Origin: Candidatus Omnitrophota bacterium
GTDB taxonomy: Bacteria > Omnitrophota > Gorgyraeia > Tantalellales > Tantalellaceae
Direction: 5' to 3'
Length of the DNA stretch: 64,000 nucleotides
Assembly: GCA_049643885.1 (NCBI GenBank)
Contig: JBARQV010000006.1
Location: 19,234 to 83,233, forward strand
The translations under genes and the position numbers were made by a program. The notes beneath the pieces were generated by a model that was not told the DNA's origin, ran no database searches, and saw only the letters and a program-made list of their open reading frames with translations. Of the stretch, positions 3,753 to 61,973 are shown piece after piece (the first letter of the stretch is position 1; every line of letters begins with the position of its first letter).

Positions 3753-4637
3753 GTGGAAGAATACATCGACCAATTTATAGATTTCATGGAAGTTGAACGC
3801 GGGGTAAGCCCGAATACTATCGAATCTTACCGGAGGGATATCGAAAAGTTCGTTTCTTACCTCCGTTCCGTAAAAAAAGACCTGGCAAAAGCCGACCGCG
3901 AGGAGATCATGGATTTCATGATGAGCCTCAAAAGCAAAGGCCTTTCCGCGTCGACTATCGCCAGAAATCTTGCTTCGCTAAAAACATTCTGGAAGTTCCT
4001 TGTGATGGAGAGGATAGTGCCCGAGAACGTCGCTGCGGTCATCGAGACCCCAAAGACCTGGAAGACCATCCCTGATGTGCTGAACAAACAGGAAGTGGAG
4101 AAGCTTTTGAACGCTCCCCCGCGCAAGGGAACGACCGGTGTCAGGGACAGGGCCATACTTGAACTGATGTACGCGACGGGCTTGAGAGTCTCGGAAGTCA
4201 AGGACCTGAAAAAGGCGAATGTCAACCTTGAAGCGAGTTTTGTAAAATGTTCAGGGAAAGGGGGCAAGGAGCGTGTGGTGCCTCTGGGAAGCTTTGCTAA
4301 AGACGCGGTGGCAAAATACGTGAGCGGAGCCAGGCAGAAACTTTCGCGTAAGATCGAAGACGATCATCTGTTTTTATCTAAGCTGGGGAAATGTCTTTCC
4401 CGCCAGAGTATATGGAAGATGATCCGGAAGTACGCCAGACAGTCCGGCATAAAGAAGCATATTACACCCCACACCCTGAGGCATTCGTTCGCTACGCATC
4501 TATTGGAAGGCGGGGCGGAACTCCTCGGGATCCAGGAAATGCTAGGGCACGCTGATATATCGACGACGCAAATATACACGCATATAAATAAGGATAAGCT
4601 CAAGAAGGTGCATGAGAAGTACCACCCGAGAGCGTAG
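3753..4637 (+). CDS. xerD: tyrosine recombinase XerD (GTG start)
   Basis: N-terminal SAM-like domain. C-terminal R...HxxR...Y catalytic residues (HTLRHSFATHLLEGG...Y). 294 aa, the canonical Xer size. Confidence 0.8.
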   Translation: MEEYIDQFIDFMEVERGVSPNTIESYRRDIEKFVSYLRSVKKDLAKADREEIMDFMMSLKSKGLSASTIARNLASLKTFWKFLVMERIVPENVAAVIETPKTWKTIPDVLNKQEVEKLLNAPPRKGTTGVRDRAILELMYATGLRVSEVKDLKKANVNLEASFVKCSGKGGKERVVPLGSFAKDAVAKYVSGARQKLSRKIEDDHLFLSKLGKCLSRQSIWKMIRKYARQSGIKKHITPHTLRHSFATHLLEGGAELLGIQEMLGHADISTTQIYTHINKDKLKKVHEKYHPRA

Positions 4638-19951: not shown

Positions 19952-20005
19952 ATAAGATAACTGAACACAATCGAGCATTTACTCAAAAATTCACTTAAGC
20001 CCGGC

Positions 20006-20033
20006 TTGACGATATATATTTTATCATTATACT
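20006..20033 (+). promoter_or_regulatory. putative sigma70 promoter (TTGACG-16-TATACT) upstream of the excisionase-like HTH gene
   Basis: Read directly from the sequence. About 77 nt upstream of the start codon. Confidence 0.3.
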
Positions 20034-20109
20034 TACAAGCACAAGGGGCGAGAGTATATACTAATTTGTATCAACGCATACCAATTCATACCAACCCGGA
20101 GATAGTATC

Positions 20110-20295
20110 ATGGCAAGAGCGATCATGACAGTAGAAGAGCTGGCTAAATACCTGAAGATGAAAGTGGTTACTATCTATAAACACGCCCAGCAGGGCAAGC
20201 TCCCAGGCTTCAAAGTAGGCTCAAAATGGCGCTTCAAAAAAGAAACCATTGATAAGTGGATTGAGAAACAAGAAAAGAAGAAGCATGTTTTTTAG
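20110..20295 (+). CDS. excisionase-family helix-turn-helix DNA-binding protein
   Basis: 61 aa, TVEELAKYLK...IYK...GKLPGFKVGSKWRF. This is the MerR-like 'excisionase family' HTH (TIGR01764-like). Confidence 0.6.
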   Translation: MARAIMTVEELAKYLKMKVVTIYKHAQQGKLPGFKVGSKWRFKKETIDKWIEKQEKKKHVF

Positions 20296-20312
20296 AGAAG
20301 AAGGAGAAATAC

Positions 20313-21527
20313 TTGAGGATAGTCATTACTGGAGCAACGGGTCTAATAGGCCAAAACCTGCTGTTTGAAATAATCAAGCAGAATCTGCGCAATCTTCATA
20401 ACGTTCAAATAATTGTTTTGGGACGGGATAAAGATGGTAATAATATCCACAAACGCATCAAGGAGATGGTTCTCAACGAAGGTATTCCATATGTAACACG
20501 GGATAAATCAGATATTGGAGCAATTAGGGAGTATTGCCAATCCAGTATCATAAGTATTTATGCTGACTTAAGCAAGAAGAAGCTTGGTCTGAAGGATAAG
20601 GAGTACAGAGAGCTAAAGAAAACTCCCATTGATTTCTTTTTCCATTTAGCCGCGGTAACAGACCTTCGCGATATGCCAAGAATCGAACATACATTAGTAA
20701 AGGTAAATGTTGGCGGAACTAAACAAATTTTAGAACTAATATCATCATTAAAGGTGCGGGAATTTTGTTATACAGGCACCGCATATTCATGTGGCGATAT
20801 TGCAGGAAGCATTAAACCAGACTATATAAACCGTAGCAACAAATTTCGTAATCCGTATGAAAAGACAAAATTGGATGCTGAGCTTCTTGTGCGGGATTTT
20901 GCGAGAAAAACGAAAACAAGATGTAGATATTTTAGGCCATCTGTTACATGTGGCAGGCTTATAGAACAGCCCCTGGGTGCTGTGAATAAATTTGATGTTT
21001 TTTATGGATGGGCGGCATTTTTTTTCCAGGTAAAAATTAAGGAACTAGCGAATGGGAAGGATATATATGATAAACCCTTAAAGTTAGATATGAGAATACG
21101 TTACAATCTCAAGAGTGGTCTCAACATCGTGCCTGCAGATTTTGTAGCTAAAACCATGTATCAGATATGTGTGCAAAATGATTCCGACGAAAGCTATTAT
21201 TTGGTAAACAACCAAGAAACCCCTCATGGGGTTTATATACCGTTGATGCTTCAATCTTTTAATATAGCAGGCCCCAGACAAGTGGATGTCATTCCTGATG
21301 ATATGAATCATCTTGAACGCCTTTATTATAAGACCGTCGGGAAAGTATTTACGCCGTATATCACATCAGACCCTATTTTATTTGATACTAGTAACCTGAG
21401 TGACGTTTTACATAGGGCCAATCTTAAATGTCCGGTTGTGGATGAGAAAAATTTCTTGCTTCTCATGGATTACGCTAAAAAACATGATTTCGGTATTGAT
21501 AAAAATAACGAAAGTGCAGTTTTATAA
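20313..21527 (+). CDS. SDR-family NAD(P)-dependent reductase, NAD_binding_4 / thioester(acyl)-reductase-like
   Basis: ITGATGLIGQNLL Rossmann motif and YxxxK (YEKTK). Confidence 0.55.
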   Translation: MRIVITGATGLIGQNLLFEIIKQNLRNLHNVQIIVLGRDKDGNNIHKRIKEMVLNEGIPYVTRDKSDIGAIREYCQSSIISIYADLSKKKLGLKDKEYRELKKTPIDFFFHLAAVTDLRDMPRIEHTLVKVNVGGTKQILELISSLKVREFCYTGTAYSCGDIAGSIKPDYINRSNKFRNPYEKTKLDAELLVRDFARKTKTRCRYFRPSVTCGRLIEQPLGAVNKFDVFYGWAAFFFQVKIKELANGKDIYDKPLKLDMRIRYNLKSGLNIVPADFVAKTMYQICVQNDSDESYYLVNNQETPHGVYIPLMLQSFNIAGPRQVDVIPDDMNHLERLYYKTVGKVFTPYITSDPILFDTSNLSDVLHRANLKCPVVDEKNFLLLMDYAKKHDFGIDKNNESAVL

Positions 21528-21550
21528 CATTTTTAAAAGAGAGAACACTC

Positions 21551-22846
21551 ATGAAATTAAAAACTGATTTCGCGGTAATAGGAAGTGGTGCTGGAGGCGC
21601 GACAATTGCAATGGAACTAGCCAAAAAGGGCAGGAAGGTTTTAATTCTTGATAAGGGTTCGTTTGCAAAAGAGAGCGAAATAGGCACATTACGTTCGGCA
21701 GTGCTTACTTTTTATGATAGATGCGCTTTGCGAGCAAGCAAAGAAGGAATTATTATTTATCGGGCATTAATGGCTGGGGGGACCACTTTTGTTAGTTGTG
21801 GGAACGGGTTACCGGTTTTGGTAGATGAATTGGAACATTGTGGGATTGATTTAAAAGAGGAGTTTGAAGAAACTGAGAGAGAATTAAGCATCGCACGATT
21901 GCCGGATGATTTTATAGGACCGGGTTCACGCTTGATAATGAATGCTGCTAATAGATTGGGTTTTGATATGGGCCCTATGCCCAAATTCATCAATACGGAT
22001 AAGTGTATATTATGCGGCAAATGTGTATTGGGATGTAAAACAGGCGCTAAATGGTCTGCTTTGGATTACATTAAGGTGGCCCGTAAGCATGGCGCTAAAT
22101 TTGTTAAAAATATAGATGTAAAATCCATAGTTACGCACAATGGCAAAGCTGTTGGCGTTGTCGGGAAAAGCCCGAAGGGGACTGTTCGAGTTTTTGCGAA
22201 CAAGATTATTGTGGCTGCGGGAGGGATTGGTACGCCCGCTATCTTAAAGCGAAGCGGTATAGAAAATGCCGGAAATAAACTATTTGCCGATTTATTTAAT
22301 GTTACCTATGGCATATTTAAAGGTGAAAAAATTAATCAATGGAAAGAAGTTTCGATGTCCGTATTAAGTGCAAAATTCCTGAAAGACAGGGGGTTCATAA
22401 TATCACCGTTTATTGATGTTCCGTTAATATTGAGATGGATAACTTCAAAGAAAAGGCAATTGCAAGGGTTTAGATATAAAAACCTTCTTGGAATAATGGT
22501 TAAGATAAAAGATGACAGCAAAGGAATGGTTACGGAAAAAGGAAATTTTGAAAAGGCGCCAACGATAAATGATAACAAGCGACTTAACGAGGGTGCAAAT
22601 ATAGCAGAGCAAATACTAAGGGAAACGGGCATTAAGAGCGAGGATATATTCCATACCAAGCCAAGAGCGGCGCATCCGGGAGGATCCGCGGCTATTGGCG
22701 AAGTAGTCGATGCTGATTTAGAGACAAAGATAAAAAATCTATATGTATGCGATGCTAGTGTTTTACCGCTTTCTCCCGGCGCTCCGCCAATAGTCACGAT
22801 AGTTGCCTTGGCAAAGAGGTTGGCCAAAAGGATACTAGCATCATGA
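21551..22846 (+). CDS. FAD-dependent oxidoreductase with GMC-type C-terminal domain and an internal CxxCxxCxxxC motif
   Basis: N-terminal FAD fold (VIGSGAGG), C-terminal AHPGGSAAIG...CDASVLP like GMC_oxred_C. Internal CILCGKCVLGC motif. Confidence 0.55.
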   Translation: MKLKTDFAVIGSGAGGATIAMELAKKGRKVLILDKGSFAKESEIGTLRSAVLTFYDRCALRASKEGIIIYRALMAGGTTFVSCGNGLPVLVDELEHCGIDLKEEFEETERELSIARLPDDFIGPGSRLIMNAANRLGFDMGPMPKFINTDKCILCGKCVLGCKTGAKWSALDYIKVARKHGAKFVKNIDVKSIVTHNGKAVGVVGKSPKGTVRVFANKIIVAAGGIGTPAILKRSGIENAGNKLFADLFNVTYGIFKGEKINQWKEVSMSVLSAKFLKDRGFIISPFIDVPLILRWITSKKRQLQGFRYKNLLGIMVKIKDDSKGMVTEKGNFEKAPTINDNKRLNEGANIAEQILRETGIKSEDIFHTKPRAAHPGGSAAIGEVVDADLETKIKNLYVCDASVLPLSPGAPPIVTIVALAKRLAKRILAS

Positions 22847-22886
22847 AAGTTGTTGTACGTATATCGATATTCACAGAAGGTGAAAA

Positions 22887-25025
22887 GTGAATTTATTTAG
22901 GATATCATGTTTAATCGGGATAATATGTAATTTTGGACTAACCCTGTTTTTTCTTTCCTGGAGGGGGAAAAAGCATCCCTCGACTACATGGTTCACGGGG
23001 TTTACTTTGAGTGCCGCAGTATGGCATTTGGGCGCTTTCATGTTTTCAGCCTGTCTGGTAGAACATTATAATGCGGCATTTTTTTGGTGGAAAATATCTT
23101 ATATGGGGGCTTTTTTTGCGATAGCTTTTTTCTTTCATTTTATAATACGGTATCTTGAGTTAGGCAAAAGGTTCTTGCTTTTTGTGGTTTACTTGGCAGC
23201 TTTTACTTTTTCGTTTTTCAACTGGTACGATAATTCAAGGTATTTTTTGGGTGATATACATTTTACTTTTGACCAGTTTTATTGGATAGATGCGCTCAAA
23301 TATAAAAATCCACTATTCTTCATTTTTTACATTTCCTTTTTTTGGGTTATATTGGGGTATGGTTTCTTTCTGCTGTTAAAGGCTCTGCAGAATTCGACCG
23401 GGATTATGCATAATAAGCTGAAGTATTTTATAATAGCCGTGGGCTTTGGTTGGATAGGGACTAATCCTCTTTTTCTCCCGGCTTTTCGTATTAGTTTTTA
23501 CCCTTACAGCAATTTTCTCGTTGGCACATACCCTTTACTTGTTGCTTATGCTATTATTCGATATCAAGTTATGGATATTGAAGTTATTATCAAAAAGACA
23601 ATTGTTTTTGCTGGTCTTTTTCTTGCATCTTATGCTGTACTTGTTAGTTTCGCGTACTTGGGTTCAATTTTTTTTGAAAACGCTGTCCAGAATCGATGGA
23701 TAGCAATGGGTCCTTTTGTTTTGACGCTTGTCCTCATATTACGGCCATTGGAGAATTTTCTCAGAAACGTCACAGATAAATATCTTTTCCAGAAAAAATA
23801 TGATTACAAACAACTTTTGAAAACATTTACAGATAAAGTACTTACAGTCCTGGATCTTAAAGAACTGGTCGATCTTACGGTCAACCAGCTTGTAGATGTC
23901 ATGAAACTGGAAAATGCAAATATTTTGATCCACAATGACGAAAATAAGGAGTTCTATATAGCATCAACTGCCGGCGCTCATAAGAGAGGATATATTTTAA
24001 GTGATAGCAATCGTTTGGTGACTTACATGTATGAACATAAAAAGAATGTTATTTTAAAAAGCGCGGAGATCGATACAGAGATCGAAAAAGAGATGAATAA
24101 GATCGGCGCCGAGCTTACCATGCCTCTGCTGCATTATAAAGAGATGACAGGTATTTTGATTTTAAACAAGAAGAAATCAGATGAAGAATTCACCCAGGAT
24201 GATATCGATGTTCTTTTGTCTATGGCACGTGCTCTAGCTGTAGCGATAACGAACGCACAGCTTTTTGATAAGCTTTCAGTAGCCCAGGCTCAGGCTGCGC
24301 AAAGCGAAAAGATGGCAGTTATCGGGACTCTCTCGGCAGGTATTAATCACGAGATATGTAATCCTCTCAGTATTATCAGAGGTCAGTGTGAGATGTTTTT
24401 GCTGAATTTAAAAGAAGGGTTATATAAAAACAGGAGCACTAAAGAATTGCTTGAAAAATCCAAAGAGATCATGCAAAAGGTCATAAACGAAGCGGACCGG
24501 GCAACGGTGATAACCAGGAAACTATCATCATTTTCAAAGCCCGCGTCAAGGCAGAACCTGGATGATGTCCGGGTAGAGGATGAGCTGGACGAAGTTATTT
24601 CCCTTGTGGAGCACGATCTTCATTTATTAAATATTGAAATAATAAAGGAGATCGAAGGCGGACTTCCTTGTGTTTCCGCAGATCCCAAGCAGGTCCAGGA
24701 GATATTTTTTAACATAATAAGGAACGCGGCCCAGTCGATCAAAGGGGATGGCAAAGTAACAATAAAGGCAAAGAGTAAGGATGATAAGGTATTTGTTGAT
24801 GTTGAAGATACGGGAGCCGGCATAAATCCGGAAAATCTCAAACAAATATTCAATCCATTTTTCACGACCAAGAGTCCGGGAAAAGGAACGGGTTTGGGGC
24901 TTTTTATCGTAAGGCAGATCGTTGAAAAAAATAACGGGAAGATATCTGTTCAGAGCGAACTTGGGAAGGGAACCGTTGTCAGTTTGATCTTTAACGCGGT
25001 TACCGTAAAAGAAAAGACAATATAA
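22887..25025 (+). CDS. sensor histidine kinase with N-terminal multi-TM (7TM-like) sensor domain (GTG start)
   Basis: Hydrophobic N-terminal third, GAF-like middle, HisKA (INHEICNPL) and HATPase_c (G-x-G-L-G) domains. Confidence 0.8.
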   Translation: MNLFRISCLIGIICNFGLTLFFLSWRGKKHPSTTWFTGFTLSAAVWHLGAFMFSACLVEHYNAAFFWWKISYMGAFFAIAFFFHFIIRYLELGKRFLLFVVYLAAFTFSFFNWYDNSRYFLGDIHFTFDQFYWIDALKYKNPLFFIFYISFFWVILGYGFFLLLKALQNSTGIMHNKLKYFIIAVGFGWIGTNPLFLPAFRISFYPYSNFLVGTYPLLVAYAIIRYQVMDIEVIIKKTIVFAGLFLASYAVLVSFAYLGSIFFENAVQNRWIAMGPFVLTLVLILRPLENFLRNVTDKYLFQKKYDYKQLLKTFTDKVLTVLDLKELVDLTVNQLVDVMKLENANILIHNDENKEFYIASTAGAHKRGYILSDSNRLVTYMYEHKKNVILKSAEIDTEIEKEMNKIGAELTMPLLHYKEMTGILILNKKKSDEEFTQDDIDVLLSMARALAVAITNAQLFDKLSVAQAQAAQSEKMAVIGTLSAGINHEICNPLSIIRGQCEMFLLNLKEGLYKNRSTKELLEKSKEIMQKVINEADRATVITRKLSSFSKPASRQNLDDVRVEDELDEVISLVEHDLHLLNIEIIKEIEGGLPCVSADPKQVQEIFFNIIRNAAQSIKGDGKVTIKAKSKDDKVFVDVEDTGAGINPENLKQIFNPFFTTKSPGKGTGLGLFIVRQIVEKNNGKISVQSELGKGTVVSLIFNAVTVKEKTI

Positions 25026-25041
25026 ACAGGAGGAAGATATC

Positions 25042-25416
25042 ATGATAAAATTGCTGGTCGTCGACGATGAAATAGATATTTGCGATTTCGTGAAAAATTT
25101 CTTTAAAGAAAGGAATTTCGATGTTTCCGTGGCTTACAACGGGAAGGAGGCTCTCAGGATAATGGACACCGTAAAGCCTCAAATAGTCCTGCTGGATCTT
25201 AAAATGCCGGTAATGGATGGCATGGAAACCCTGAAAAGAATAAACAAGAGTCATCCGGAAGCAAAGGTCATCATAGTTACCGCGGTGGAAGATACGGAAA
25301 AAGCGGAAGAAGCTAAAAGGCATAACGCGGCCGAATATATAACCAAACCCTTATTTTTAGAGCAGCTTGAAAGGGCGGTCATGACGATCGCAGAGCAGAT
25401 CAAGATGGGGATGTAA
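25042..25416 (+). CDS. single-domain response regulator (receiver only)
   Basis: DD...D...K receiver residues. 124 aa. Confidence 0.85.
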   Translation: MIKLLVVDDEIDICDFVKNFFKERNFDVSVAYNGKEALRIMDTVKPQIVLLDLKMPVMDGMETLKRINKSHPEAKVIIVTAVEDTEKAEEAKRHNAAEYITKPLFLEQLERAVMTIAEQIKMGM

Positions 25417-25430
25417 AAAATAGGGGGCAT

Positions 25431-26762
25431 ATGGAAAAGGATAAAAGTTGGCGTGATATTCATGAGTGGATCATCGAAAAGATGAAAAACACTGATGGGG
25501 CGCTCATCCCGATAGATAATGAAAGTATCAGGATGAGACAGGAGCCTGAACTGGATTACCAGTTCATCCTGGAAAATACCTCGCGGAGCATGATACGTTT
25601 CAAAAAGCCGGAACGCCTCATCCGCATGATCGTCAGGGTGATCGACGAGCTGGTAAAAGTGTCCCATACGGCCATGCTTTTATACCATAAAGACAGGGAT
25701 TATTTCACGCTTATAGACAGCAAAGGAGCCGAGGGCGTCAAGATACCGATCGGGTTTATCCGGCTCACTTTTGACAATCCGCTTATTCGTTTATTTAACG
25801 AGGGGTATAATTTCAAGCTATCGGATACGGGGGCTATCGAGTATAAAGAGATGAAAACCAGCTTACACGATAACAGGATCGAAAAAGATAAAGAACTGGT
25901 AGGATTGATCGACCTGTCGCTCAGGCAAATGGATCTTTTAAAGGCGAATGTATGTATTCCAGTTTATTACAAGAAAGAGCTCGTGGGCGTTTTTGTCCTG
26001 GGCGTGAAGTTATCGGGCGAAAAATTTTCCAGACAGGAGATAGGTTTTTTCAGGACGCTGGCGAATGATGTAGCAATGGCGTTATCCAATGCCCAGCTCA
26101 TCCAGGATCTCCAGGACAAGATACATGAGATACATAACCTGTATGAGAGGGAGCATACGTTATTTTTACAGACTTCTATATCTCTTGCTGCCGCCATTGA
26201 CGCCAGGGATACTTATACCAGGGGCCATACGGAACGGGTTACACATTATGCTCTTGCGATCGCTAATGAACTGGAGGGCATTCCGGAGGCCCAGGCATAC
26301 GAGAATTTCAAGGAAACACTTCATGTTGCATCACTTCTGCATGATGTAGGCAAAATAGGAGTTCCGGACAGTATTCTGAACAAGAAAAGCCAGCTCACGA
26401 AAGAAGAATATGAGAGAATAAAGGAGCACTCCGTTACCGGTGCGGCTATCCTTTCTCCTATTAAAGAATTGGGAGATATTGCTAATGAAGTCAAGGCGCA
26501 TCACGAAAAGTATGATGGCACGGGATATCCTGACGGTTTAAAGGGCGAGGCAATACCGTTTATCGCGCGCATAATAGCTGTAGCGGATACTTTTGACGCG
26601 ATAACTAGTGACAGGCCTTACCGTCAAAAAGGGATGGAGGAGGTAGCTGTCCAGATAATAAAGGATAACTCCGGGACTCAGTTTGACCCGATCCTTGTAA
26701 GCGCTTTTCTCTTAGCTTATAGAAAAGGCAAGTTTCTTATTAATAAGAACAAGAAAGGATAA
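25431..26762 (+). CDS. GAF-domain HD-GYP phosphodiesterase (c-di-GMP)
   Basis: HD...HHEKYDGTGYP motif of the HD-GYP family. Confidence 0.85.
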   Translation: MEKDKSWRDIHEWIIEKMKNTDGALIPIDNESIRMRQEPELDYQFILENTSRSMIRFKKPERLIRMIVRVIDELVKVSHTAMLLYHKDRDYFTLIDSKGAEGVKIPIGFIRLTFDNPLIRLFNEGYNFKLSDTGAIEYKEMKTSLHDNRIEKDKELVGLIDLSLRQMDLLKANVCIPVYYKKELVGVFVLGVKLSGEKFSRQEIGFFRTLANDVAMALSNAQLIQDLQDKIHEIHNLYEREHTLFLQTSISLAAAIDARDTYTRGHTERVTHYALAIANELEGIPEAQAYENFKETLHVASLLHDVGKIGVPDSILNKKSQLTKEEYERIKEHSVTGAAILSPIKELGDIANEVKAHHEKYDGTGYPDGLKGEAIPFIARIIAVADTFDAITSDRPYRQKGMEEVAVQIIKDNSGTQFDPILVSAFLLAYRKGKFLINKNKKG

Positions 26763-28347
26763 TTTCAAAAGATGTTCCTTTTCCAGGTTCACTTTTGACG
26801 TTGATTTTTCCACCGTGTTTATTGATAATGCCATGAACAACGCTCAGGCCCAGTCCGCTGCCGCCGTCCTTTTTAGTGAAAAACGGGTCAAAGATATGCT
26901 TTAAGTCTTCTCTGTCTATGCCCTTGCCTGTGTCTTCTATCAGGATCGATATTTTGTTGTCCCCGGCTATTTCGGTTTTTACTGTGATCGTGCCGCTATT
27001 CTCAATAGATTCGAGCGCATTAAGTAAAATATTCAAGAAAATCTGTTTAATTTGTGACGGGTCAACTTTAACGGGCGGAATCCGTGAGTAGCTCTTTTCA
27101 ACTTTAATATTGTGTTTTAGAAGATCATTGTTTAAAAGTTCTAAAGTCTCGTTCAATAAGCTATTCAGGTCAGATTCCTCAAGACAAAGTTCTTTAGGTT
27201 TAGAAAAATCCAGAAGCTGCTTGACTATGCTGTTTATTTTTTCTACTTCAGCCCCAACGACATTATTAAATTTTTTAATGAAACCAGGATCATCGCATTT
27301 TTCCGGCAGGTATTCCGTAAAGGTCTTGATGGATGTAAGCGGATTTTTTATTTCATGTGCCATGCCGGCAGCAAGTGTTGCTACGGCCTTGAGTTTTTCG
27401 CTTTTTCGAAGTTCTTCGCGGAGTTTAATATTCTCCTCATCTATTTGGTCGATTGAGCCGCGGAAGAAATATTTATCAATAATTGATTGCGTCTTATTTT
27501 TCAAAGGTTGAAACAAAACGATGAATAAAATAATTAGTGCAAAAGATATTGGAAATGATTGGTAACCATAATATATTCTAAAAATATTTTCAAGCACTAA
27601 AATTATGCTGAAATAAATTATTGTTAAAATAGTTGCTAATACAGAATAAAGGAGTGTTTTTCTAAAAATTATATTAATATCGAGTAATTCATGTGCAACA
27701 ATTGCATATACAATTATAGCAGCGTAAACAAAAACCAAAATGTTTAAATAGGGTGGAAATGAAATATTGAAAAATTGAAAATAATTTGTTGAGCCACCCA
27801 GGTATCCAGCAATAGCACCTGTTAATATGTATTTTAGTTGATTTTTTCTTTTCGAAGAAACACTATGCAAATAGGATTTAAAAAGAAAAATCATCGAGAG
27901 GAGGCTAAATCCAAAAAAATTGGCAAGAAAAACATAATAAAGCGGGCCAGGAACGCCCCAATAAGGGAATATGCCGATTGGTTTCATGCCTTTAATAAAG
28001 TATGGAGTAAAAATTAATGGCAAAATTAGAAAGCTTAATAAATAACCAAAAAATAACACTCTTTTTTTATTCTTGTCTAACAGGGTAATGACAAAATGAA
28101 AAAATGTTATTGAAATAAAATTAGCGCCACAATGTAAAAACTGAAACCAAAAAAGAGTGCTATCTGAAGTTTTTGATATTGGCCAGAATATATAACCAAA
28201 ACTCCAAATGGCTATGGAGAGGTTAAATATTGCAAAACGAATGTTAATCTTAGATTTTTTGTTTTTATAATAAACGAAAAGCGCTAAGAAAATAAAGGCA
28301 ATGAAATTAATTGCGCCAGTAAGTGTAAAATATAACATTTTGTTCAT
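26740..28347 (-). CDS. sensor histidine kinase with N-terminal multi-TM domain (paralog of the 22887 kinase)
   Basis: Same architecture: HisKA (MAHEIKNPL) and HATPase_c (GSGLGLS). Confidence 0.8.
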   Translation of the reverse strand: MNKMLYFTLTGAINFIAFIFLALFVYYKNKKSKINIRFAIFNLSIAIWSFGYIFWPISKTSDSTLFWFQFLHCGANFISITFFHFVITLLDKNKKRVLFFGYLLSFLILPLIFTPYFIKGMKPIGIFPYWGVPGPLYYVFLANFFGFSLLSMIFLFKSYLHSVSSKRKNQLKYILTGAIAGYLGGSTNYFQFFNISFPPYLNILVFVYAAIIVYAIVAHELLDINIIFRKTLLYSVLATILTIIYFSIILVLENIFRIYYGYQSFPISFALIILFIVLFQPLKNKTQSIIDKYFFRGSIDQIDEENIKLREELRKSEKLKAVATLAAGMAHEIKNPLTSIKTFTEYLPEKCDDPGFIKKFNNVVGAEVEKINSIVKQLLDFSKPKELCLEESDLNSLLNETLELLNNDLLKHNIKVEKSYSRIPPVKVDPSQIKQIFLNILLNALESIENSGTITVKTEIAGDNKISILIEDTGKGIDREDLKHIFDPFFTKKDGGSGLGLSVVHGIINKHGGKINVKSEPGKGTSFEIILSCSY

Positions 28348-28386
28348 ATCTAGAAGTGATTTTTAAAATAAGACTTATAAAAATCT

Positions 28387-28743
28387 TTAAATCTTACTCA
28401 CTTTTTCTTTTACTTCGTCGCTTTCGAATGGTTTGGTGATGTAGTCGATGGCGCCGTATTGGACGGCTTTTGTGGCGGTTTCAACGCTCTGGTAACCGGT
28501 CACAATGATCACTTTTGTGTTCGGGGAGATCCTTTTGATCTCTTTGAGTGTTTCCAGGCCGTCTTTTGTCGGCATTTTGATATCCAGCAAAACACCGTCA
28601 AAATTAGCGTTCTTGACTTTATTAATAGCCTCGTTCCCGGTTGAGGCAAAATCGAGCTTATAATTATCTTCAAGTATCAGATTAAGGGATTCGCGGACAC
28701 CTTCTTCATCATCACATATTAAGATTTTTTTTTGAGTATTCAT
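28387..28743 (-). CDS. single-domain response regulator (receiver only)
   Basis: CheY-like receiver, 118 aa. Sits directly downstream (in the transcription direction) of the minus-strand kinase's partner position. Confidence 0.85.
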   Translation of the reverse strand: MNTQKKILICDDEEGVRESLNLILEDNYKLDFASTGNEAINKVKNANFDGVLLDIKMPTKDGLETLKEIKRISPNTKVIIVTGYQSVETATKAVQYGAIDYITKPFESDEVKEKVSKI

Positions 28744-28756
28744 ATTTTCCCCCTTA

Positions 28757-29308
28757 TTACAGTGCCGGCGGTGAGATCACGCAAATAGCTTCGGCTTCTG
28801 TTTTTGTCTTATTCTTGAAGAAATGGGGAAGGGAAGCGTCGAAGTAAAGGCTGTCTCCTTTTTTAAGCGCGTAGTTTTGGCCGCCGACGTTCGCTTCAAT
28901 AACCCCGGTCATGACATATATGAATTTTTCAATGCCCGGTTTATTCTTCTCTTTCTGGGTCTCTCCGCCTTTCCCGAGCACCATCATAAGAGGCATGATC
29001 TTCTTATCCAGCGTTTTAGTCACCAAAAGTTCGTATTTGGCTTTCTGGGCATGGATAAAGTGTTCCGTTCTTTTTCTTCTGGGAACGGTTTCGATCACCT
29101 TGGCTTCATCTTCAAGTTCGCCGTAAAGTTCCACCAAAGAAGTCCCAAGTGCTTTACACAGGCGGTTATGCGAGACAAGGGTGCCGGTCATTTTATTGTT
29201 CTCGATCCGGCTCAAAGTAGCCAGGGCTACGCCGCTTTTCTTGGATAGCTCCTCAAGCGTCATGTTTTGTTCTTTTCGCAGTTCTTTTAGTCTTTTTCCT
29301 ATTTTCAT
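28757..29308 (-). CDS. XRE-family transcriptional regulator with C-terminal cupin domain
   Basis: HTH_3 motif (LKELRKEQNMTLEELS...LSRIE) plus a cupin beta-barrel. Start trimmed to MKIGKRL. Confidence 0.75.
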   Translation of the reverse strand: MKIGKRLKELRKEQNMTLEELSKKSGVALATLSRIENNKMTGTLVSHNRLCKALGTSLVELYGELEDEAKVIETVPRRKRTEHFIHAQKAKYELLVTKTLDKKIMPLMMVLGKGGETQKEKNKPGIEKFIYVMTGVIEANVGGQNYALKKGDSLYFDASLPHFFKNKTKTEAEAICVISPPAL

Positions 29309-29440
29309 TTTGCCTTCCTTCCCTTGGTCCGGTAACAAATAATATATCCTAGTTTTTGCGAAAAATCAAATAGAATTTTTAATTATTGAAAATAAGGACA
29401 TTATTGTTTATAGGATATAATTATGCTACAATTATACCCT

Positions 29441-32230
<2,790 letters not shown>

Positions 32231-38233: not shown

Positions 38234-38309
38234 GGGGCAGTAGCTCAGCTGGAAGAGCATCACGTTCGCAACGTGGGGGTCGTGGGTTCGAGTCCCATCT
38301 GCTCCACCA
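38234..38309 (+). tRNA. tRNA-Ala (anticodon CGC)
   Basis: Cloverleaf folded by hand. G3:U70 Ala identity pair, anticodon loop TTCGCAA, encoded CCA. Confidence 0.85.
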
Positions 38310-38313
38310 ACAA

Positions 38314-38349
38314 TAAAAAAACCCTTCAGTTTTTCTGAAGGGTTTTTTA
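38314..38349 (+). terminator. rho-independent terminator (cccttcag/ctgaaggg stem plus T-run; A-run on the 5' side, possibly bidirectional)
   Basis: Perfect 8-bp GC-containing stem followed by TTTTTT, directly after the tRNA. Confidence 0.6.
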
Positions 38350-38366
38350 TTGTCGTTCCGTTCCCA

Positions 38367-38530
38367 TTAAACGTTCATCAGACGTTTGACTCATCTGAAT
38401 GTTGAAAAGGCCCGGGGGTGTATTCCGTGCTCAGACAGTCCAAAAAAAAGCGACCTAAAATCGCTTTTTTTTGGAAACTCGCACTGAACACACCCCCGGA
38501 CCTTTCCGTAACCCTGATCAGATCAAGCAT
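38367..38530 (+). repeat. F1 structured repeat, copy a (about 165-bp imperfect palindrome centred on the perfect hairpin ccaaaaaaaagcga...tcgcttttttttgg)
   Basis: About 90% identical to copy b at 41146-41312 in the same orientation. Internal long inverted repeats. Confidence 0.75.
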
Positions 38531-38544
38531 CTGAGTGAAGAAAT

Positions 38545-38710
38545 TTGTGATTTTTATTGCCTGGACTGTTCCGTACAGGGCTTTAAATTTCCGAGCGGGC
38601 ACGGTTCGCCCGTGTCCTAACTTCCGGCGAGAGCGAGGAAATTTTAGAGTCCGATTTTCTCGCTGGGAAAAGCGGACGTCCCTGGTAGGAACGGACAGGT
38701 AATAAAAAAA
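38545..38710 (+). repeat. F2 structured repeat, copy a (about 165 bp, 25-bp terminal inverted repeats ttattgcctgg.ctgttccgtacaggg / ccctggtaggaacggacagg.aataa, two internal hairpins)
   Basis: About 95% identical to copy b at 59266-59431 in the same orientation. Confidence 0.75.
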
Positions 38711-38745
38711 CCACGAATCACGAACCACGAACGACGAACCACGAG
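38711..38745 (+). repeat. tandem heptamer (cacgaa[c/t]) x5 microsatellite
   Basis: ccacgaatcacgaaccacgaacgacgaaccacgagg, read directly. Abuts F2a. Confidence 0.6.
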
Positions 38746-38801
38746 GGGCGCGACTTGACTTTTCGGGAGAATAGGGCATATTTGTTACTTAAGGAGGTGG
38801 T

Positions 38802-38978
38802 ATGATGAAAATAATTTCTTGTTTATTAGCTTTGGTCGGGTTGGTCTGTATAGCCTTTTCGATCCTCATGAAGCTCAAAGGGATCAATCTTCTGGGAGCC
38901 GGCGCCCCGGTATCGTATTTAGTGCTTGCGAACACCTTCTTTCTTCTATCGATCTCTGCGGCGATGCATAAAAAGTGA
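38802..38978 (+). CDS. hypothetical small membrane protein (58 aa; below the cutoff of the ORF track)
   Basis: Strong RBS AAGGAGGTGG 5 nt upstream of ATG. Two predicted TM helices. Confidence 0.4.
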   Translation: MMKIISCLLALVGLVCIAFSILMKLKGINLLGAGAPVSYLVLANTFFLLSISAAMHKK

Positions 38979-41145: not shown

Positions 41146-41312
41146 TTAAACGTTCATTGGATGCTTGACTTATCTGAATGTTGAAAAGGTCTGGGGGGTG
41201 TATTCCGTGCTCAGACAGTCCAAAAAAAACGACCTAAAATCGCTTTTTTTTGGAAACTCGCACTGAACACACCCCCAGACCTTTCCGTAACTCTGATCAG
41301 GTTAATCATCCA
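41146..41312 (+). repeat. F1 structured repeat, copy b
   Basis: See copy a. Lies between the MEMO1-AMMECR1 stop and the rsmE start. Confidence 0.75.
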
Positions 41313-41347
41313 CAGGCAATAAACAAATCGATGATGACTAACGAACA

Positions 41348-51689: not shown

Positions 51690-52901
51690 ATGGATATCAA
51701 AAAGATAGGTATAATGACCAGCGGTGGCGATTGCGGCGGGTTAAACGCAGTTGTCAAAGGTGCGGCTGATGCTTCGATCAGATCAGGAATAAGATGCTTT
51801 GTCATACCGAACGGGTACGCGGGGCTATATAATCTTATCGATTTCGATGAATTGATCGAGCTCACAGAACGGCGGACTGATCTTATAGATGCCAACCCGG
51901 CCGGTTCCGAGGCGGGGCATTCCAGGGTCAAGATAAAGAAGATAAAAGACGAAAATAAATATGAACGCATCAAGAAGGGCCTGGAAAAGTTCGGGATAGA
52001 CGGCCTTGTTATCAGCGGGGGAGACGATACCGGCAGCGTTATCATAGACCTTTTTAAGCACGGTATCCCGTGCGTCCATGTCCCTAAGACCATGGATCTC
52101 GATCTTCAGACGTATTCGGTCGGAGGTGATTCCACGGTCAACCGCATAGCGAATTTCGCGGAAGACCTGAAAACTACCGGGAAGACCCACAACAGGGTCA
52201 TCGTTCTTGAAGTGTTCGGCAGGTATGCCGGGCATACGGCCTTGCGAGGCGGCGTAGCCGCCGATGCGGACGCGGTATTGATCCCGGAAATACCTGTCGA
52301 TTTTGATATCTTGTACGTCCATGTCAAGGAAAGGCTTACGAAAAGGATCCTCGGGAGCGATGTCCATGCCGGAACATATCTTATCATCGCGGCCGAGGGG
52401 CTTAGAGACGTCAGCGGAAAAGCGATCGTTGATGAAAGCACGGGAGTCGACGCTTTCGGACATAAAAAACTCGCGGGTGCGGGTAAATATGTCCGCCAGG
52501 AATTGTCTAAAAGATTTAAGGTCGATCCGGAAATAGTCGATTTCATGAAGAAATCCCACATGTATGTCGAAGAGCTTTATGTTGCGCCTGAGGTGCGCGA
52601 GGTGACTCCGGGGCATCTTGTGCGTTCCGGGCGAAGCTCCGCGTATGACGTGAATTTCGGAAGGGAAGGCGGATCTGCAGCAGTAGCTCTCCTGAAAAAC
52701 GGCATAACAGGCGTTACGGTGGCGGGGGTCTCCGGTAAAGAGGTCCGTTACATGTCGACCGAAGCAGCCATAAAGCCGAGGCACGTAGATCTGGACCTTG
52801 TCAGCCTTTATGAACAGCTCGGCATCTGTTTCGGCAGGGATCCCGGAAAATTCACTCCTACGTTTAAAGAGCTGGAAAAAGCCCCTGAGAGGTTTCTATA
52901 A
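51690..52901 (+). CDS. pfk: 6-phosphofructokinase (PfkA family, possibly PPi-dependent type)
   Basis: GIMTSGGDCGGLNAVV...GGDDT...MDLD motifs. 403 aa. Confidence 0.85.
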   Translation: MDIKKIGIMTSGGDCGGLNAVVKGAADASIRSGIRCFVIPNGYAGLYNLIDFDELIELTERRTDLIDANPAGSEAGHSRVKIKKIKDENKYERIKKGLEKFGIDGLVISGGDDTGSVIIDLFKHGIPCVHVPKTMDLDLQTYSVGGDSTVNRIANFAEDLKTTGKTHNRVIVLEVFGRYAGHTALRGGVAADADAVLIPEIPVDFDILYVHVKERLTKRILGSDVHAGTYLIIAAEGLRDVSGKAIVDESTGVDAFGHKKLAGAGKYVRQELSKRFKVDPEIVDFMKKSHMYVEELYVAPEVREVTPGHLVRSGRSSAYDVNFGREGGSAAVALLKNGITGVTVAGVSGKEVRYMSTEAAIKPRHVDLDLVSLYEQLGICFGRDPGKFTPTFKELEKAPERFL

Positions 52902-52994
52902 ATGAGCACATGATTTACGAACACGATAGTGTCCGTAAATCATAAGTGCGAATTTATCCCGTCCGACATAAAAACGCCCCAAGCGGCGTCGGTG

Positions 52995-53369
52995 ATGATA
53001 ACGGACGGGATAACTCAAACCATGATAACGAATGAACGAAGAGCTTTCAAGAGGGTGAACAATAGGTTTAACGTAACTTTTAAACCCCTTGATGATCCGG
53101 GAACCAATGCTGGCAGTTCATTTACAAAAAATATCAGCATAGGCGGGGTTTATTTTACCAGCCTTAAAAAATTCGACATAGGACAACTTGTAGACTGCCG
53201 CATAGGTGTTCCCGGAGCAGCCAAAGAGGGCAAATGGACCGGAAGGGTCGTCCGCTGTGAAGACCTGGAAGATCATGTAGTGGACACGTACGGCATTGCC
53301 GTCGAGTTTGTCAGATCTTTCGGCAACGCGGAAAAAGATTTAAAAAAAGCGCTGGAAAAAGACCTGTAA
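52995..53369 (+). CDS. PilZ-domain protein
   Basis: RRAFKR...ISIGG c-di-GMP-binding motifs. The ORF is open from 52929, so the start is uncertain. Confidence 0.6.
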   Translation: MITDGITQTMITNERRAFKRVNNRFNVTFKPLDDPGTNAGSSFTKNISIGGVYFTSLKKFDIGQLVDCRIGVPGAAKEGKWTGRVVRCEDLEDHVVDTYGIAVEFVRSFGNAEKDLKKALEKDL

Positions 53370-58083: not shown

Positions 58084-58937
58084 AGACGTATCTGGAATGT
58101 ATTCCATGTTTTCTGCGCCAGGCCCTGGACGCGGCAAAACTGTCCGGAGCCGATAAGAAGACCCAGAAGAAGATCATAGATGAAGTTGCACGCCTGCTCC
58201 CGGATTTTTCCCTGGATGTGGCCCCGCCCGAGATCGCGAGGACAGTTTACGGTGTGGTAGAAAACTACACCGGGGGGAAAGACGCCTACCGGCACATCAA
58301 GGAAAAGAGCAACGCGATGGCCATGGAGCTTTATGCCCGCCTTAAAAAGGAGATCGAAGGCTCGGATGATATTCTCCTGAGCGCGGTGCGCCTTGCTGTT
58401 GCGGGAAATGTCATAGATTACGGGGTACCCCACGCGTTCGATATCGAAAAAGAGATCGAGGAATGCCTGGAGAAGGATTTCGCGGTGTTCGATTTTGATG
58501 ATTTCAAAAAGGCGGTGAATGAAGCTAAAAATATCCTCTATATCCTGGATAACGCAGGTGAGATAGTTTTCGACACCATACTTATAGAGGAAATAAAGAA
58601 AGATATCATTTGCGCGGTCAGGGGAAAACCGATCATAAATGATGTGACCATGGAAGACGCCAGGCAAGTCGGTCTTGATAAAAAGGCCAGGGTCATTTCA
58701 AGCGGTTCTGACATCCCGGGGACGGGCCTTGAAAGGTGCGACAAGGAATTCCTCCAGATATACAAAGATGCCGATGTCATCATAAGCAAAGGCCAGGGGA
58801 ATTACGAGACGCTAGCCGATGAGGCAAGGCCTATCTTTTTCATTTTCAAAGCCAAATGCCCGGTTATCGCCGAGCACATCGGATGCAGGGTAGGGGACAT
58901 CATTTTAAAGAAGCAGAGTTCCGCATCGGTTATTTAG
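58080..58937 (+). CDS. DUF89-family (ARMT1-like damage-control phosphatase) protein
   Basis: N-terminal TYLECIPCFLRQ hallmark and DN.GE motif. Confidence 0.7.
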   Translation: MKTYLECIPCFLRQALDAAKLSGADKKTQKKIIDEVARLLPDFSLDVAPPEIARTVYGVVENYTGGKDAYRHIKEKSNAMAMELYARLKKEIEGSDDILLSAVRLAVAGNVIDYGVPHAFDIEKEIEECLEKDFAVFDFDDFKKAVNEAKNILYILDNAGEIVFDTILIEEIKKDIICAVRGKPIINDVTMEDARQVGLDKKARVISSGSDIPGTGLERCDKEFLQIYKDADVIISKGQGNYETLADEARPIFFIFKAKCPVIAEHIGCRVGDIILKKQSSASVI

Positions 58938-58961
58938 AATGTTTATCCTGTTTTTGCCGGG

Positions 58962-59002
58962 GCACCGGGCGGAGGGGCCCTGGTAGGGAATATGCTGCAC
59001 TG
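58962..59002 (+). repeat. F3 repeat, partial copy a (right arm: gcaccgggcggaggggccctggtagggaatatgctgcactg)
   Basis: 40/41 identical to part of F3b at 61879-61919. Confidence 0.6.
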
Positions 59003-59265
59003 CGCAACTTATATCCGAACGAAAAATAGCTCTGCAAAAACAATAAAATCTTTCCCATCCAAATTTTTTAACGGTATTTTTCTAACTTTCGAAGGGCATA
59101 AAAGAACTCGCCCTTTTTGATTTCTTCCGGAAGAAATCAAAAAGGGCTCAAACATCCTTTTACGCTGTTTTCCTTCAAAAGTTATAAAAATACCTAAAAT
59201 TTGGCAATGGGTCCCTTTGATCTTATTGTTTTTGCTGAGCTAATCATCTACTAGTAACAAAAACG

Positions 59266-59431
59266 TTCGTGATTTTTATTGCCTGGCCTGTTCCGTACAG
59301 GGCTTTAAATTTCCGAGTGGGCACGGTTCGCCCGTGTCTTAACTTCCGGCGAGAGCGAGGAAATTTTAGAGTCCGATTTTCTCGCTGGGAAAATCGGACG
59401 TCCCTGGTAGGAACGGACAGGCAATAAAAAA
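59266..59431 (+). repeat. F2 structured repeat, copy b
   Basis: See F2a. Confidence 0.75.
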
Positions 59432-59473
59432 TCGAAGTCAATAGTGTCGAGATAGCTTGACAACCATCCAAAA

Positions 59474-59513
59474 ATATGTTAACATATGAACAGTTGTTCA
59501 TATGTTAACATAT
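59474..59513 (+). promoter_or_regulatory. ArsR/SmtB-type operator: perfect 10-2-10 inverted repeat CATATGAACA-GT-TGTTCATATG nested inside flanking ATATGTTAACATAT palindromes
   Basis: Read directly from the sequence. Lies 18 nt upstream of the arsR start. Confidence 0.6.
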
Positions 59514-59530: not shown

Positions 59531-59869
59531 ATGAGAAAAGATCTGATCGCGGAAATACAGAAACAGATGAAGTCCCAGGAAATAGTCGACAAACTTTCCA
59601 GGACGTTCAGCGTGCTTGGCGACCCGACCAGGACCAAGCTGATATTCGCCTTGTCCAAGGAAGAGTTGTGCGTGGCTGAGTTGTCACAGATCCTTGGCAT
59701 GAGCCATTCGGCGATATCACACCAATTGAGGGCTCTTAAGGACCTGGACCTGGTAAGGTGCTGTAAAAAGGGAAGAAAGGCTTTTTATTCACTGAACGAT
59801 AAACATATAGAGAACCTTTTCAAGGAGGGGCTGAAGCACGTCCTTGAAAGAGTTGAAAAAGAGGTATAA
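59531..59869 (+). CDS. arsR: ArsR/SmtB-family metalloregulator
   Basis: LGDPTRTKLIFAL...ELCVAEL...SHSAISHQLRAL wHTH. Start trimmed to MRKDLIAE. Confidence 0.8.
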   Translation: MRKDLIAEIQKQMKSQEIVDKLSRTFSVLGDPTRTKLIFALSKEELCVAELSQILGMSHSAISHQLRALKDLDLVRCCKKGRKAFYSLNDKHIENLFKEGLKHVLERVEKEV

Positions 59870-61833: not shown

Positions 61834-61844
61834 GAAGTAAAGAG

Positions 61845-61925
61845 TATAGTGCAGTATGTTCCCGTACAGGGAGGATCCACACCGGGCGGAGGGGCCCTGG
61901 TAGGGAATATACTGCACTGTATAGT
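61845..61925 (+). repeat. F3 repeat, full copy b: about 28-bp-stem hairpin (tatagtgcagtatgttcccgtacaggg...ccctggtagggaatatactgcactgtata)
   Basis: Read directly. Lies between the feoB stop and the radical SAM start. Shares the gtacaggg/ccctggtag core with the F2 termini. Confidence 0.65.
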
Positions 61926-61973
61926 TTACATTCGCGACAGGACCCGCCTCCGCAATACGATATACAAGGGTGC

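Follow-up and report, generated by a model that had tools for sequence, protein, structure and literature searches.

A probable MITE-like hairpin repeat in Candidatus Omnitrophota, with hints that its RNA fold matters

Correia/NEMIS elements in Neisseria, ERIC/IRU in enterobacteria, and RUP and BOX in Streptococcus pneumoniae are transcribed bacterial MITEs that occur in tens to hundreds of copies. The arms of MITEs are usually conserved, owing to the constraint imposed by the transposase, and the core is usually neutral filler. REP/BIME sequences are imperfect palindromes of 20 to 40 nucleotides (nt), have RAYT transposases, and usually number in the hundreds. The PATEs of the IS200/IS605 group carry separate left-end and right-end subterminal hairpins and insert 3' of a fixed target of 4 to 5 nt. 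Effects on mRNA processing or stability have been described for Correia, ERIC, and REP elements.

The repeat analyzed here, F2, occurs in the 64-kb stretch of DNA under study (the window) from Candidatus Omnitrophota, an uncultured and poorly characterized phylum, and shares a stem module with a shorter hairpin family, termed mini. Like Correia/NEMIS, ERIC/IRU, RUP, and BOX, F2 belongs to the 100- to 200-bp class, is non-coding, and has ends that form a long imperfect stem; it is likewise dispersed in intergenic and intercistronic spacers, varies in presence between relatives, and runs in the direction of the flanking genes, with which it is apparently co-transcribed. Unlike those elements, F2 lacks a visible TA or other target-site duplication, has no sequence similarity to them, and combines diverging arms with a conserved core, which is the opposite of the usual arrangement; it is also scarce, at 2 copies per 64 kb and 3 found in total, as opposed to tens to hundreds. 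With REP/BIME it shares an imperfect palindrome with a conserved internal mismatch or loop, strand-specific structure, the lack of a target-site duplication, and placement just after stop codons or between cistrons (a mini hairpin begins 4 nt past the feoB stop codon). The REP/RAYT size range, however, accommodates neither F2, which is ~165 nt with a 100-nt nonpalindromic core, nor mini (~75 to 90 nt), and no RAYT gene was seen in the window or in the flanks that were fetched. The PATEs derived from IS200/IS605 also resemble F2 in having hairpin ends, strand asymmetry, and no target-site duplication, and the GTGA at the left boundary of F2 could be a target or cleavage motif, being at or near the boundary in three of three copies, which is too small a number for a verdict. 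Unlike a PATE, F2 forms a single long stem from both of its termini, and neither TnpA nor TnpB is encoded nearby.

The two copies in the window (copies A and B [Table 1]) align without gaps and in the same orientation at 96% identity over 166 nt (BLAST E = 6e-76), in good agreement with the ~95% given in an earlier note on this DNA. They are 20.7 kb apart, their flanks are unrelated, and the similarity ends within a few bases outside the unit. Gene positions around both copies bear out that each is intergenic, as that note also claimed: copy A has tRNA-Ala(CGC) at 38234-38309, with its terminator extending to 38348, on its left and a 58-amino-acid open reading frame (ORF) at 38802 on its right, and copy B is flanked by an ARMT1-like gene (stop codon at 58937) and the arsR-feoA-feoB operon (arsR start at 59532). 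The F2 copies and all mini copies point in the same direction as the adjoining genes, but almost every gene of the window is on the + strand, so that orientation relative to transcription is inseparable from orientation relative to replication. At 166 nt, F2 is within the size of a MITE (non-coding and less than ~500 bp). That it is non-coding follows from three observations: each difference between copies A and B is nonsynonymous in the sole open + frame, the homologue described below contains a frameshifting extra G (1 nt), and peptides from the two open frames of F2 have no match in a database of 5.8 billion proteins. Several assemblies break at these repeats, with MAG and Logan contigs ending inside F2 or the neighboring repeat F1, as expected of repeats.

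Table 1. Coordinates of F2, its parts, and associated features in the window
Feature	Position	Strand	Basis or remarks
F2 copy A	38544..38709	+	Unit bounds set by homology to copy B
F2 copy B	59266..59431	+	Homologous to copy A
5' arm, copy A	38551..38580	+	TTTTTATTGCCTG-GA-CTGTTCC-GTA-CAGGG; pairs with 38680-38708 in the minimum-free-energy fold
3' arm, copy A	38680..38708	+	CCCTG-GTA-GGAACGG-A-CAGGTAATAAAAA; minimum-free-energy fold
5' arm, copy B	59273..59302	+	Comparison with copy A; fold
3' arm, copy B	59402..59430	+	Comparison with copy A; fold
Conserved core, copy A	38581..38679	+	~95% identical to the L006 homologue
Core hairpin GGGCACGG-TTCGC-CCGTGTCC	38597..38617	+	Predicted in all folds
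Core hairpin AGCGAGGAAAT-loop-ATTTTCTCGCT	38632..38664	+	Competes with GTCCGATTTTC..GAAAAKCGGAC; one of two mutually exclusive folds
Mini hairpin	61837..61929	+	F2 inner-arm module GTTCCC-GTA-CAGGG / CCCTG-GTA-GGGAA; 23-nt apex replaces the core
Mini hairpin, 3' half only (truncated)	58963..59017	+	250 nt upstream of F2 copy B
Heptamer array (AACCACG)x5.1	38709..38744	+	TRF; abuts the 3' end of copy A

F2 has a ~100-nt core closed by a ~25-bp imperfect stem formed from both ends, and it has terminal inverted repeats, as a MITE does, which span ~30 nt and are 80 to 83% complementary. In the predicted fold the terminal stem consists of 13, 7, and 5 bp, divided by a GA/A bulge and by a symmetric 3x3 internal loop (GUA/GUA); the 25-bp inverted repeats originally described are thus present as 25 bp of the fold but are imperfect. 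The + strand folds to -72.1 kcal/mol (z = -5.6, with none of 200 shuffles as good) and the - strand to -54.9 kcal/mol. The + strand is the more stable in four of five elements, comprising all three F2 copies, where the advantage is 6 to 17 kcal/mol, and one of two mini hairpins.

Only one of the two interior hairpins that had been proposed is invariant: GGGCACGG/CCGTGTCC appears in every fold, but AGCGAGGAAAT..ATTTTCTCGCT has an alternative with which it cannot coexist. The competition in the 3' half of the core is between AGCGAGGAAAU...AUUUUCUCGCU and GUCCGAUUUUC...GAAAAUCGGAC. A T-to-C change in the L006 homologue converts a G-U to a G-C pair in the former and breaks the latter, and the G of copy A (a T in the other copy) breaks one pair of GUCCGAUUUUC...GAAAAUCGGAC; in models built on three sequences, these changes favor AGCGAGGAAAU...AUUUUCUCGCU, the hairpin of the earlier description.

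Copies A and B differ at six positions. Two of the differences fall in arm or hairpin helices, and both are G-U/G-C exchanges: in the outer helix, the T at 38700 of copy A (C in copy B) faces a G, and in the GGGCACGG/CCGTGTCC hairpin a C/T difference exchanges G-C for G-U (alignment pair 65-85). These exchanges retain pairing on the + strand only, because the G-U pairs occur on that strand alone. A third difference is C-G/U-G in the RNAalifold model, an A/C difference lies in the bulge that separates the two outer helices, the G/T difference is the one that breaks a pair of GUCCGAUUUUC...GAAAAUCGGAC in copy A, and a T/C difference marks the left end of the unit, immediately outside the 13-bp outer helix. 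The check for covariation in the core gave no statistical support (RNAalifold covariation term of 0.02 for three sequences), and with three F2 sequences the fold of the core is ambiguous.

A scan with a core 20-mer recovered a third member of the family in a JGI metagenome contig, Ga0163203_1003408 (L006), whose GuaA places it in Omnitrophota; the search for copies beyond the window that had been suggested therefore yielded one, at an unrelated locus, and the family as known here has three members. A second JGI match to the core 20-mer (L005) is a chance match in high-GC coding DNA. The core of the L006 copy is ~95% identical to those of the window copies, but its arms cannot be aligned with theirs (TTTTTATTGCCTG.../...CAGGTAATAAAAA in the window versus AAATGTTTGTTCT.../...AGAACAAACATTT in L006). 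In both cases the arms nevertheless pair in an uninterrupted 13-bp outer helix, with more pairs and then the 3x3 loop further in; the loop is GUA/GUA in the window copies and GUA/GGA in L006. Differences between the window and L006 at paired positions are again G-U/G-C exchanges that pair on the + strand only. The pattern expected of a MITE is therefore inverted, with the arms least conserved and the core most, and in this respect a functional RNA fits better.

The L006 copy is an insertion of ~170 nt in the guaA-purL spacer, oriented with the coding strand of both genes. In four relatives (L014, L033, L015, and L018, whose GuaA proteins are 90, 87, 86, and 84% identical to that of L006) the two genes are separated by 44, 70, 0, and 22 nt, respectively, and the alignment shows a clean insertion in L006 with no trace of the element in the relatives. 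Such filled and empty versions of the same spacer, which are the insertion polymorphism characteristic of MITEs, indicate that F2 is or was mobile and show that at least one copy, that of L006, inserted into an intergenic spacer. The 13-bp outer stem is part of the inserted segment and is absent from the empty sites, so that the arms travel with the core; insertion of a core into a preexisting palindrome was accordingly rejected for L006. Other hairpins behave in the same manner: the L006 mini hairpin separates icd from guaA, two genes that overlap in these four relatives, and the second F1 copy of the window lies between a Memo/AMMECR1 gene and rsmE, which overlap in the relative L023 (Memo/AMMECR1 70% identical), so that several hairpin families act as insertions in this lineage. 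The check for target-site duplications was negative at copy A, copy B, and the L006 copy, although a palindromic TA duplication would be concealed by arms rich in A+T, and the empty sites compared are not exact ones. Genes for a transposase, RAYT, TnpA, or reverse transcriptase were found neither in the 64 kb of the window nor in the flanks that were fetched.

F2 copies proved few in the related DNA searched. A covariance model of the core (R1) matched copy A at 38566-38694 (157.9 bits) and copy B at 59288-59416 (157.7 bits); run on the window with filters off and on ~180 kb of related loci with default filters, ~240 kb altogether, it detected no extra F2 copies, its sole other match being a weak one (16 bits) to the mini hairpin at 61857-61909. 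F2 is also absent from ~30 kb of further DNA of the same species (L024, L028, and L029, the first two contributing ~18 kb). Exact window proteins identify five MAGs of this species (GCA_049642145.1, GCA_049644805.1, GCA_049644745.1, GCA_049645405.1, and GCA_049645485.1) as well as ENA sample ZINK19-1, and the closest named homologues of the window proteins are all from Omnitrophota. Copy B is identical in sequence in four other assemblies of the species, and among those available neither copy A nor copy B is polymorphic for presence, with the copies identical in all.

Searches of broader collections were negative. An exact 20-mer from the 3' arm had no match in the representative genomes of 185,579 species, and the five matches to a core 19-mer in that collection were rejected as chance, having nothing in common but the probe. 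Five patterns searched in IMG/VR gave chance matches or none, and plasmid and phage collections gave no F2 match by blastn in distant mode. Against Rfam 15, the whole window returned only RNase P and tRNAs at the gathering threshold, and permissive scans with copy A, the L006 copy, and the mini hairpin (to E <= 10) returned only noise. A known ribozyme and an origin from an insertion sequence or tRNA were likewise rejected as identities for F2, there being no such similarity within the window and no Rfam match. No described repeat or MITE family was found in the literature on repeats and noncoding RNAs in Omnitrophota.

The mini hairpins contain the inner arm of F2 (GTTCC-GTA-CAGGG / CCCTG-GTA-GGAAC), including its 3x3 internal loop. 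The complete copy in the window is 97% identical to L006 3916-3849, part of a mini hairpin (L006 3925-3850, - strand) in which the 3' strand of the loop is GCA. Across five hairpins, the loop is conserved as 5'-GUA/5'-GNA, with only the middle base of the 3' strand varying (U, U, U, C, and G). This stem module is the sole feature that all five have in common and is for that reason the most promising candidate recognition site. The stems of both families run on into flanks that differ between copies but are complementary (F2 copies A versus B and the two minis). The mini apex, CCGGGCGGA, resembles both edges of the F2 core (CCGAGCGG ... GCGGACGT), and on this resemblance mini may be an internal-deletion derivative of F2 or, conversely, F2 may be a mini that acquired an inserted core.

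Fragments resembling a single F2 arm occur at 38343-38364 and 41312-41331 in the window, where both abut F1 copies, and at 2660-2680 in L029, from another MAG, where the fragment comes after a GATase gene. They match at 82 to 95% over 20 to 22 nt and may be either relics of F2-type ends or chance similarities (E of 0.04 to 0.15 in the window and 2e-4 in L029). That MAG (GCA_049645485.1) differs in gene content upstream of the truncated mini and copy B: where the window has ABC, TPR, and ARMT1 genes, it has ATP-grasp and GATase genes (window 58900-58945 versus L029 2600-2700). The difference reflects a rearrangement or, alternatively, a chimeric join at this cluster of repeats.

We place the probability at a little over one-half (about 0.55) that F2 is a lineage-restricted, non-coding, nonautonomous mobile element of Candidatus Omnitrophota, a MITE- or REP-like hairpin carried on flanking transcripts. 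F2 is best classed as working like a MITE rather than as a proven one, since the test for a target-site duplication failed. The first proposal, of a MITE or a conserved structured RNA, holds in part: a mobile copy exists in L006 and arm pairing is retained despite sequence turnover, but neither a target-site duplication nor a cognate transposase was found, the arms are the least conserved part, and covariation in the core lacks statistical support (n = 3). As a mobile element, F2 would ride on the transcripts of its neighbors, where its + strand is able to form a branched hairpin of very high stability, and its movement would depend on an enzyme acting in trans. The stem module with the GUA/GNA 3x3 loop may be what this enzyme, or some other protein, recognizes. 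Once transcribed, the hairpin may also have secondary effects on the processing or stability of mRNAs, like those described for Correia, ERIC, and REP elements. F2 would then be a new, lineage-restricted member of a well-known type of bacterial repeat, and some of the evidence hints that the folding of its RNA is important.

The strongest competitor, possible though on balance unlikely, is that F2 is a functional structured RNA of benefit to its host, either a small RNA gene or a module embedded in mRNAs (for protein binding or for processing or stability), with selection retaining the core and closing helix and the few copies arising by duplication or transfer in the absence of active transposition. 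The low copy number agrees with such a role, as does the retention of a ~95% identical core between species whose GuaA proteins differ by ~10 to 14% (the ~14% assumes that P0004, from the same sample, is the GuaA of the window species). The three copies, however, occupy three unrelated contexts with no synteny, no shared promoter upstream, and no terminator downstream. Selection on a fold would also explain why the arms have diverged yet are fully paired, with a perfect 13-bp outer helix of different sequence, why the 5'-GUA/5'-GNA loop is retained in five hairpins, why both A/B substitutions in arm or hairpin helices are G-U/G-C exchanges valid on the + strand only, and why that strand is 6 to 17 kcal/mol more stable in three of three F2 copies; but RNAalifold covariation is ~0 with an ambiguous core fold (n = 3), Rfam has no match even at E <= 10, and two exact probes indicate that F2 is absent from representative genomes of 185,579 species.

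The inverted conservation, the G-U asymmetry favoring the + strand, and the retained internal loop keep both RNA-level function and mobility through RNA or single-stranded DNA in play. A reading more doubtful than a host RNA is that F2 and the minis constitute a new class of mobile structured RNA module, in which the core and the GUA/GNA module would act at the level of RNA or single-stranded DNA as a protein recognition site or as a catalytic fold that drives its own spread. Ends that needed only to base-pair would allow the arms to be rewritten while the core stayed ~95% conserved, and such a module would move by a mechanism distinct from DDE transposition dependent on binding of the terminal inverted repeats.

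Less probable again is movement through an RNA or single-stranded DNA intermediate as such, whether by retro-mobilization, by an HUH transposase of the IS200/IS605 type (a PATE), or by hairpin-primed copying. Here too the ends need only pair, which would explain rewritten but complementary arms, and the lack of target-site duplications, the strand-specific pairing asymmetry, and the extension of stems into differing yet complementary flanks (F2 copies A and B and the two minis) are all consistent with it. The GTGA at the left boundary in three of three F2 copies also fits, but in L006 it is 15 nt from the stem, and for the longer motif TTCGTGA the window shows no enrichment (13 matches versus 8.4 expected). 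Moreover, derivatives of IS200/IS605 have a separate subterminal hairpin at each end as opposed to the one long terminal stem of F2, and TnpA, RAYT, and reverse transcriptase genes were not seen in the window or its flanks.

A cis-regulatory leader (riboswitch or attenuator) controlling the downstream genes is disfavored and very improbable. Every F2 copy is upstream of a gene on the same strand, and the 3' half of the core offers two mutually exclusive hairpins, but neither alternative is followed by a U-tract, the guaA-purL site is empty in relatives, and the downstream genes form no coherent set (the 58-amino-acid ORF with FMN_bind/Memo, arsR-feoAB, and purL). In addition, the best sigma-70-like promoters for the genes after copies A and B sit downstream of the element (38755-38782 and 59457-59485), and this, together with the unrelated genes, argues against a leader. 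The least tenable reading, a one-off segmental duplication without particular properties, accords with the presence of only two copies in the window, identical in every assembly of the species, but is refuted by the L006 homologue, an insertion at a different locus in another species, and is at odds with the unrelated flanks of copies A and B and with a duplicated unit that coincides exactly with the hairpin.

These hairpin families fragment MAG assemblies and have inserted within tightly coupled operons (icd-guaA-purL). As nothing more than a MITE, F2 would be an ordinary entry in the list of such repeats. Should the conserved core and GUA/GNA module prove functional, they would point to a partner that binds RNA or single-stranded DNA, and they would also serve as markers, both in strain typing and in locating assembly breaks within the lineage.

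F2 is one of at least four dispersed families of intergenic hairpins in the 64 kb (F1, F2, mini, and I1). F1 is ~165 nt, occurs at 38367-38531 and 41146-41310 with 92% identity, and forms a long near-palindrome centered on A8-GCGA...TCGC-T8. Its first copy sits 13 to 19 nt upstream of copy A, confirming the reported junction of the two repeats, and on the other side of copy A the reported (cacgaac)x5 microsatellite was recovered by TRF as a 7-nt array of 5.1 units, the strongest short-period array in the window. The reverse complement of an AACCACG unit is the TT(C/T)GTGA in front of F2 copies A and B, and through this complementarity the first unit lengthens the stem of copy A by pairing with TTTGTG at 38544-38549. 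A different array, (TCGTCGG)x4, lies upstream of the L006 copy (L006 2250-2220, - strand) and is also present at the empty site in L014 (9146-9175), indicating that heptamer arrays can predate insertion. A link between heptamer arrays and F2 insertion is possible. The juxtaposition of F1 and F2 and the heptamer arrays fit the suggestion that repeats nest at a hotspot, but a hotspot is not demonstrated by them.

Several other sequence features accompany these repeats. A promoter-like TTCCCA-17-TAAAAT, a match to consensus only, lies on the - strand within the core of both window copies. Copy B is preceded by a strong palindrome (59110-59147). Just upstream of arsR-feoAB, a perfect 40-nt palindrome, ATATGTTAACATATGAACAGTTGTTCATATGTTAACATAT (59473-59512), overlaps a promoter-like site and is probably an ArsR operator. 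A 111-nt dispersed repeat occurs at 1250-1360 and, in inverted orientation and at 86% identity, at 52899-53009; a third, partial copy lies ~4.6 kb upstream of the start of the window (L024 5389-5456). With this repeat, the intergenic repeat families in the 64 kb number four. The last 20 nt of tRNA-Pro(CGG) (1461-1480) are repeated exactly 205 nt downstream (1666-1685), with 0 such repeats expected by chance, and look like the att-site scar of an integrated or excised element. A tyrosine recombinase (Phage_integrase) gene is situated at 3753-4637. The region from ~20000 to 30000 has a G+C content of 0.38 to 0.42, compared with ~0.48 elsewhere in the window, and holds most of the few - strand genes; it encodes two histidine kinases of the 7TM type, an HD-GYP-like protein, and an HTH-cupin regulator.
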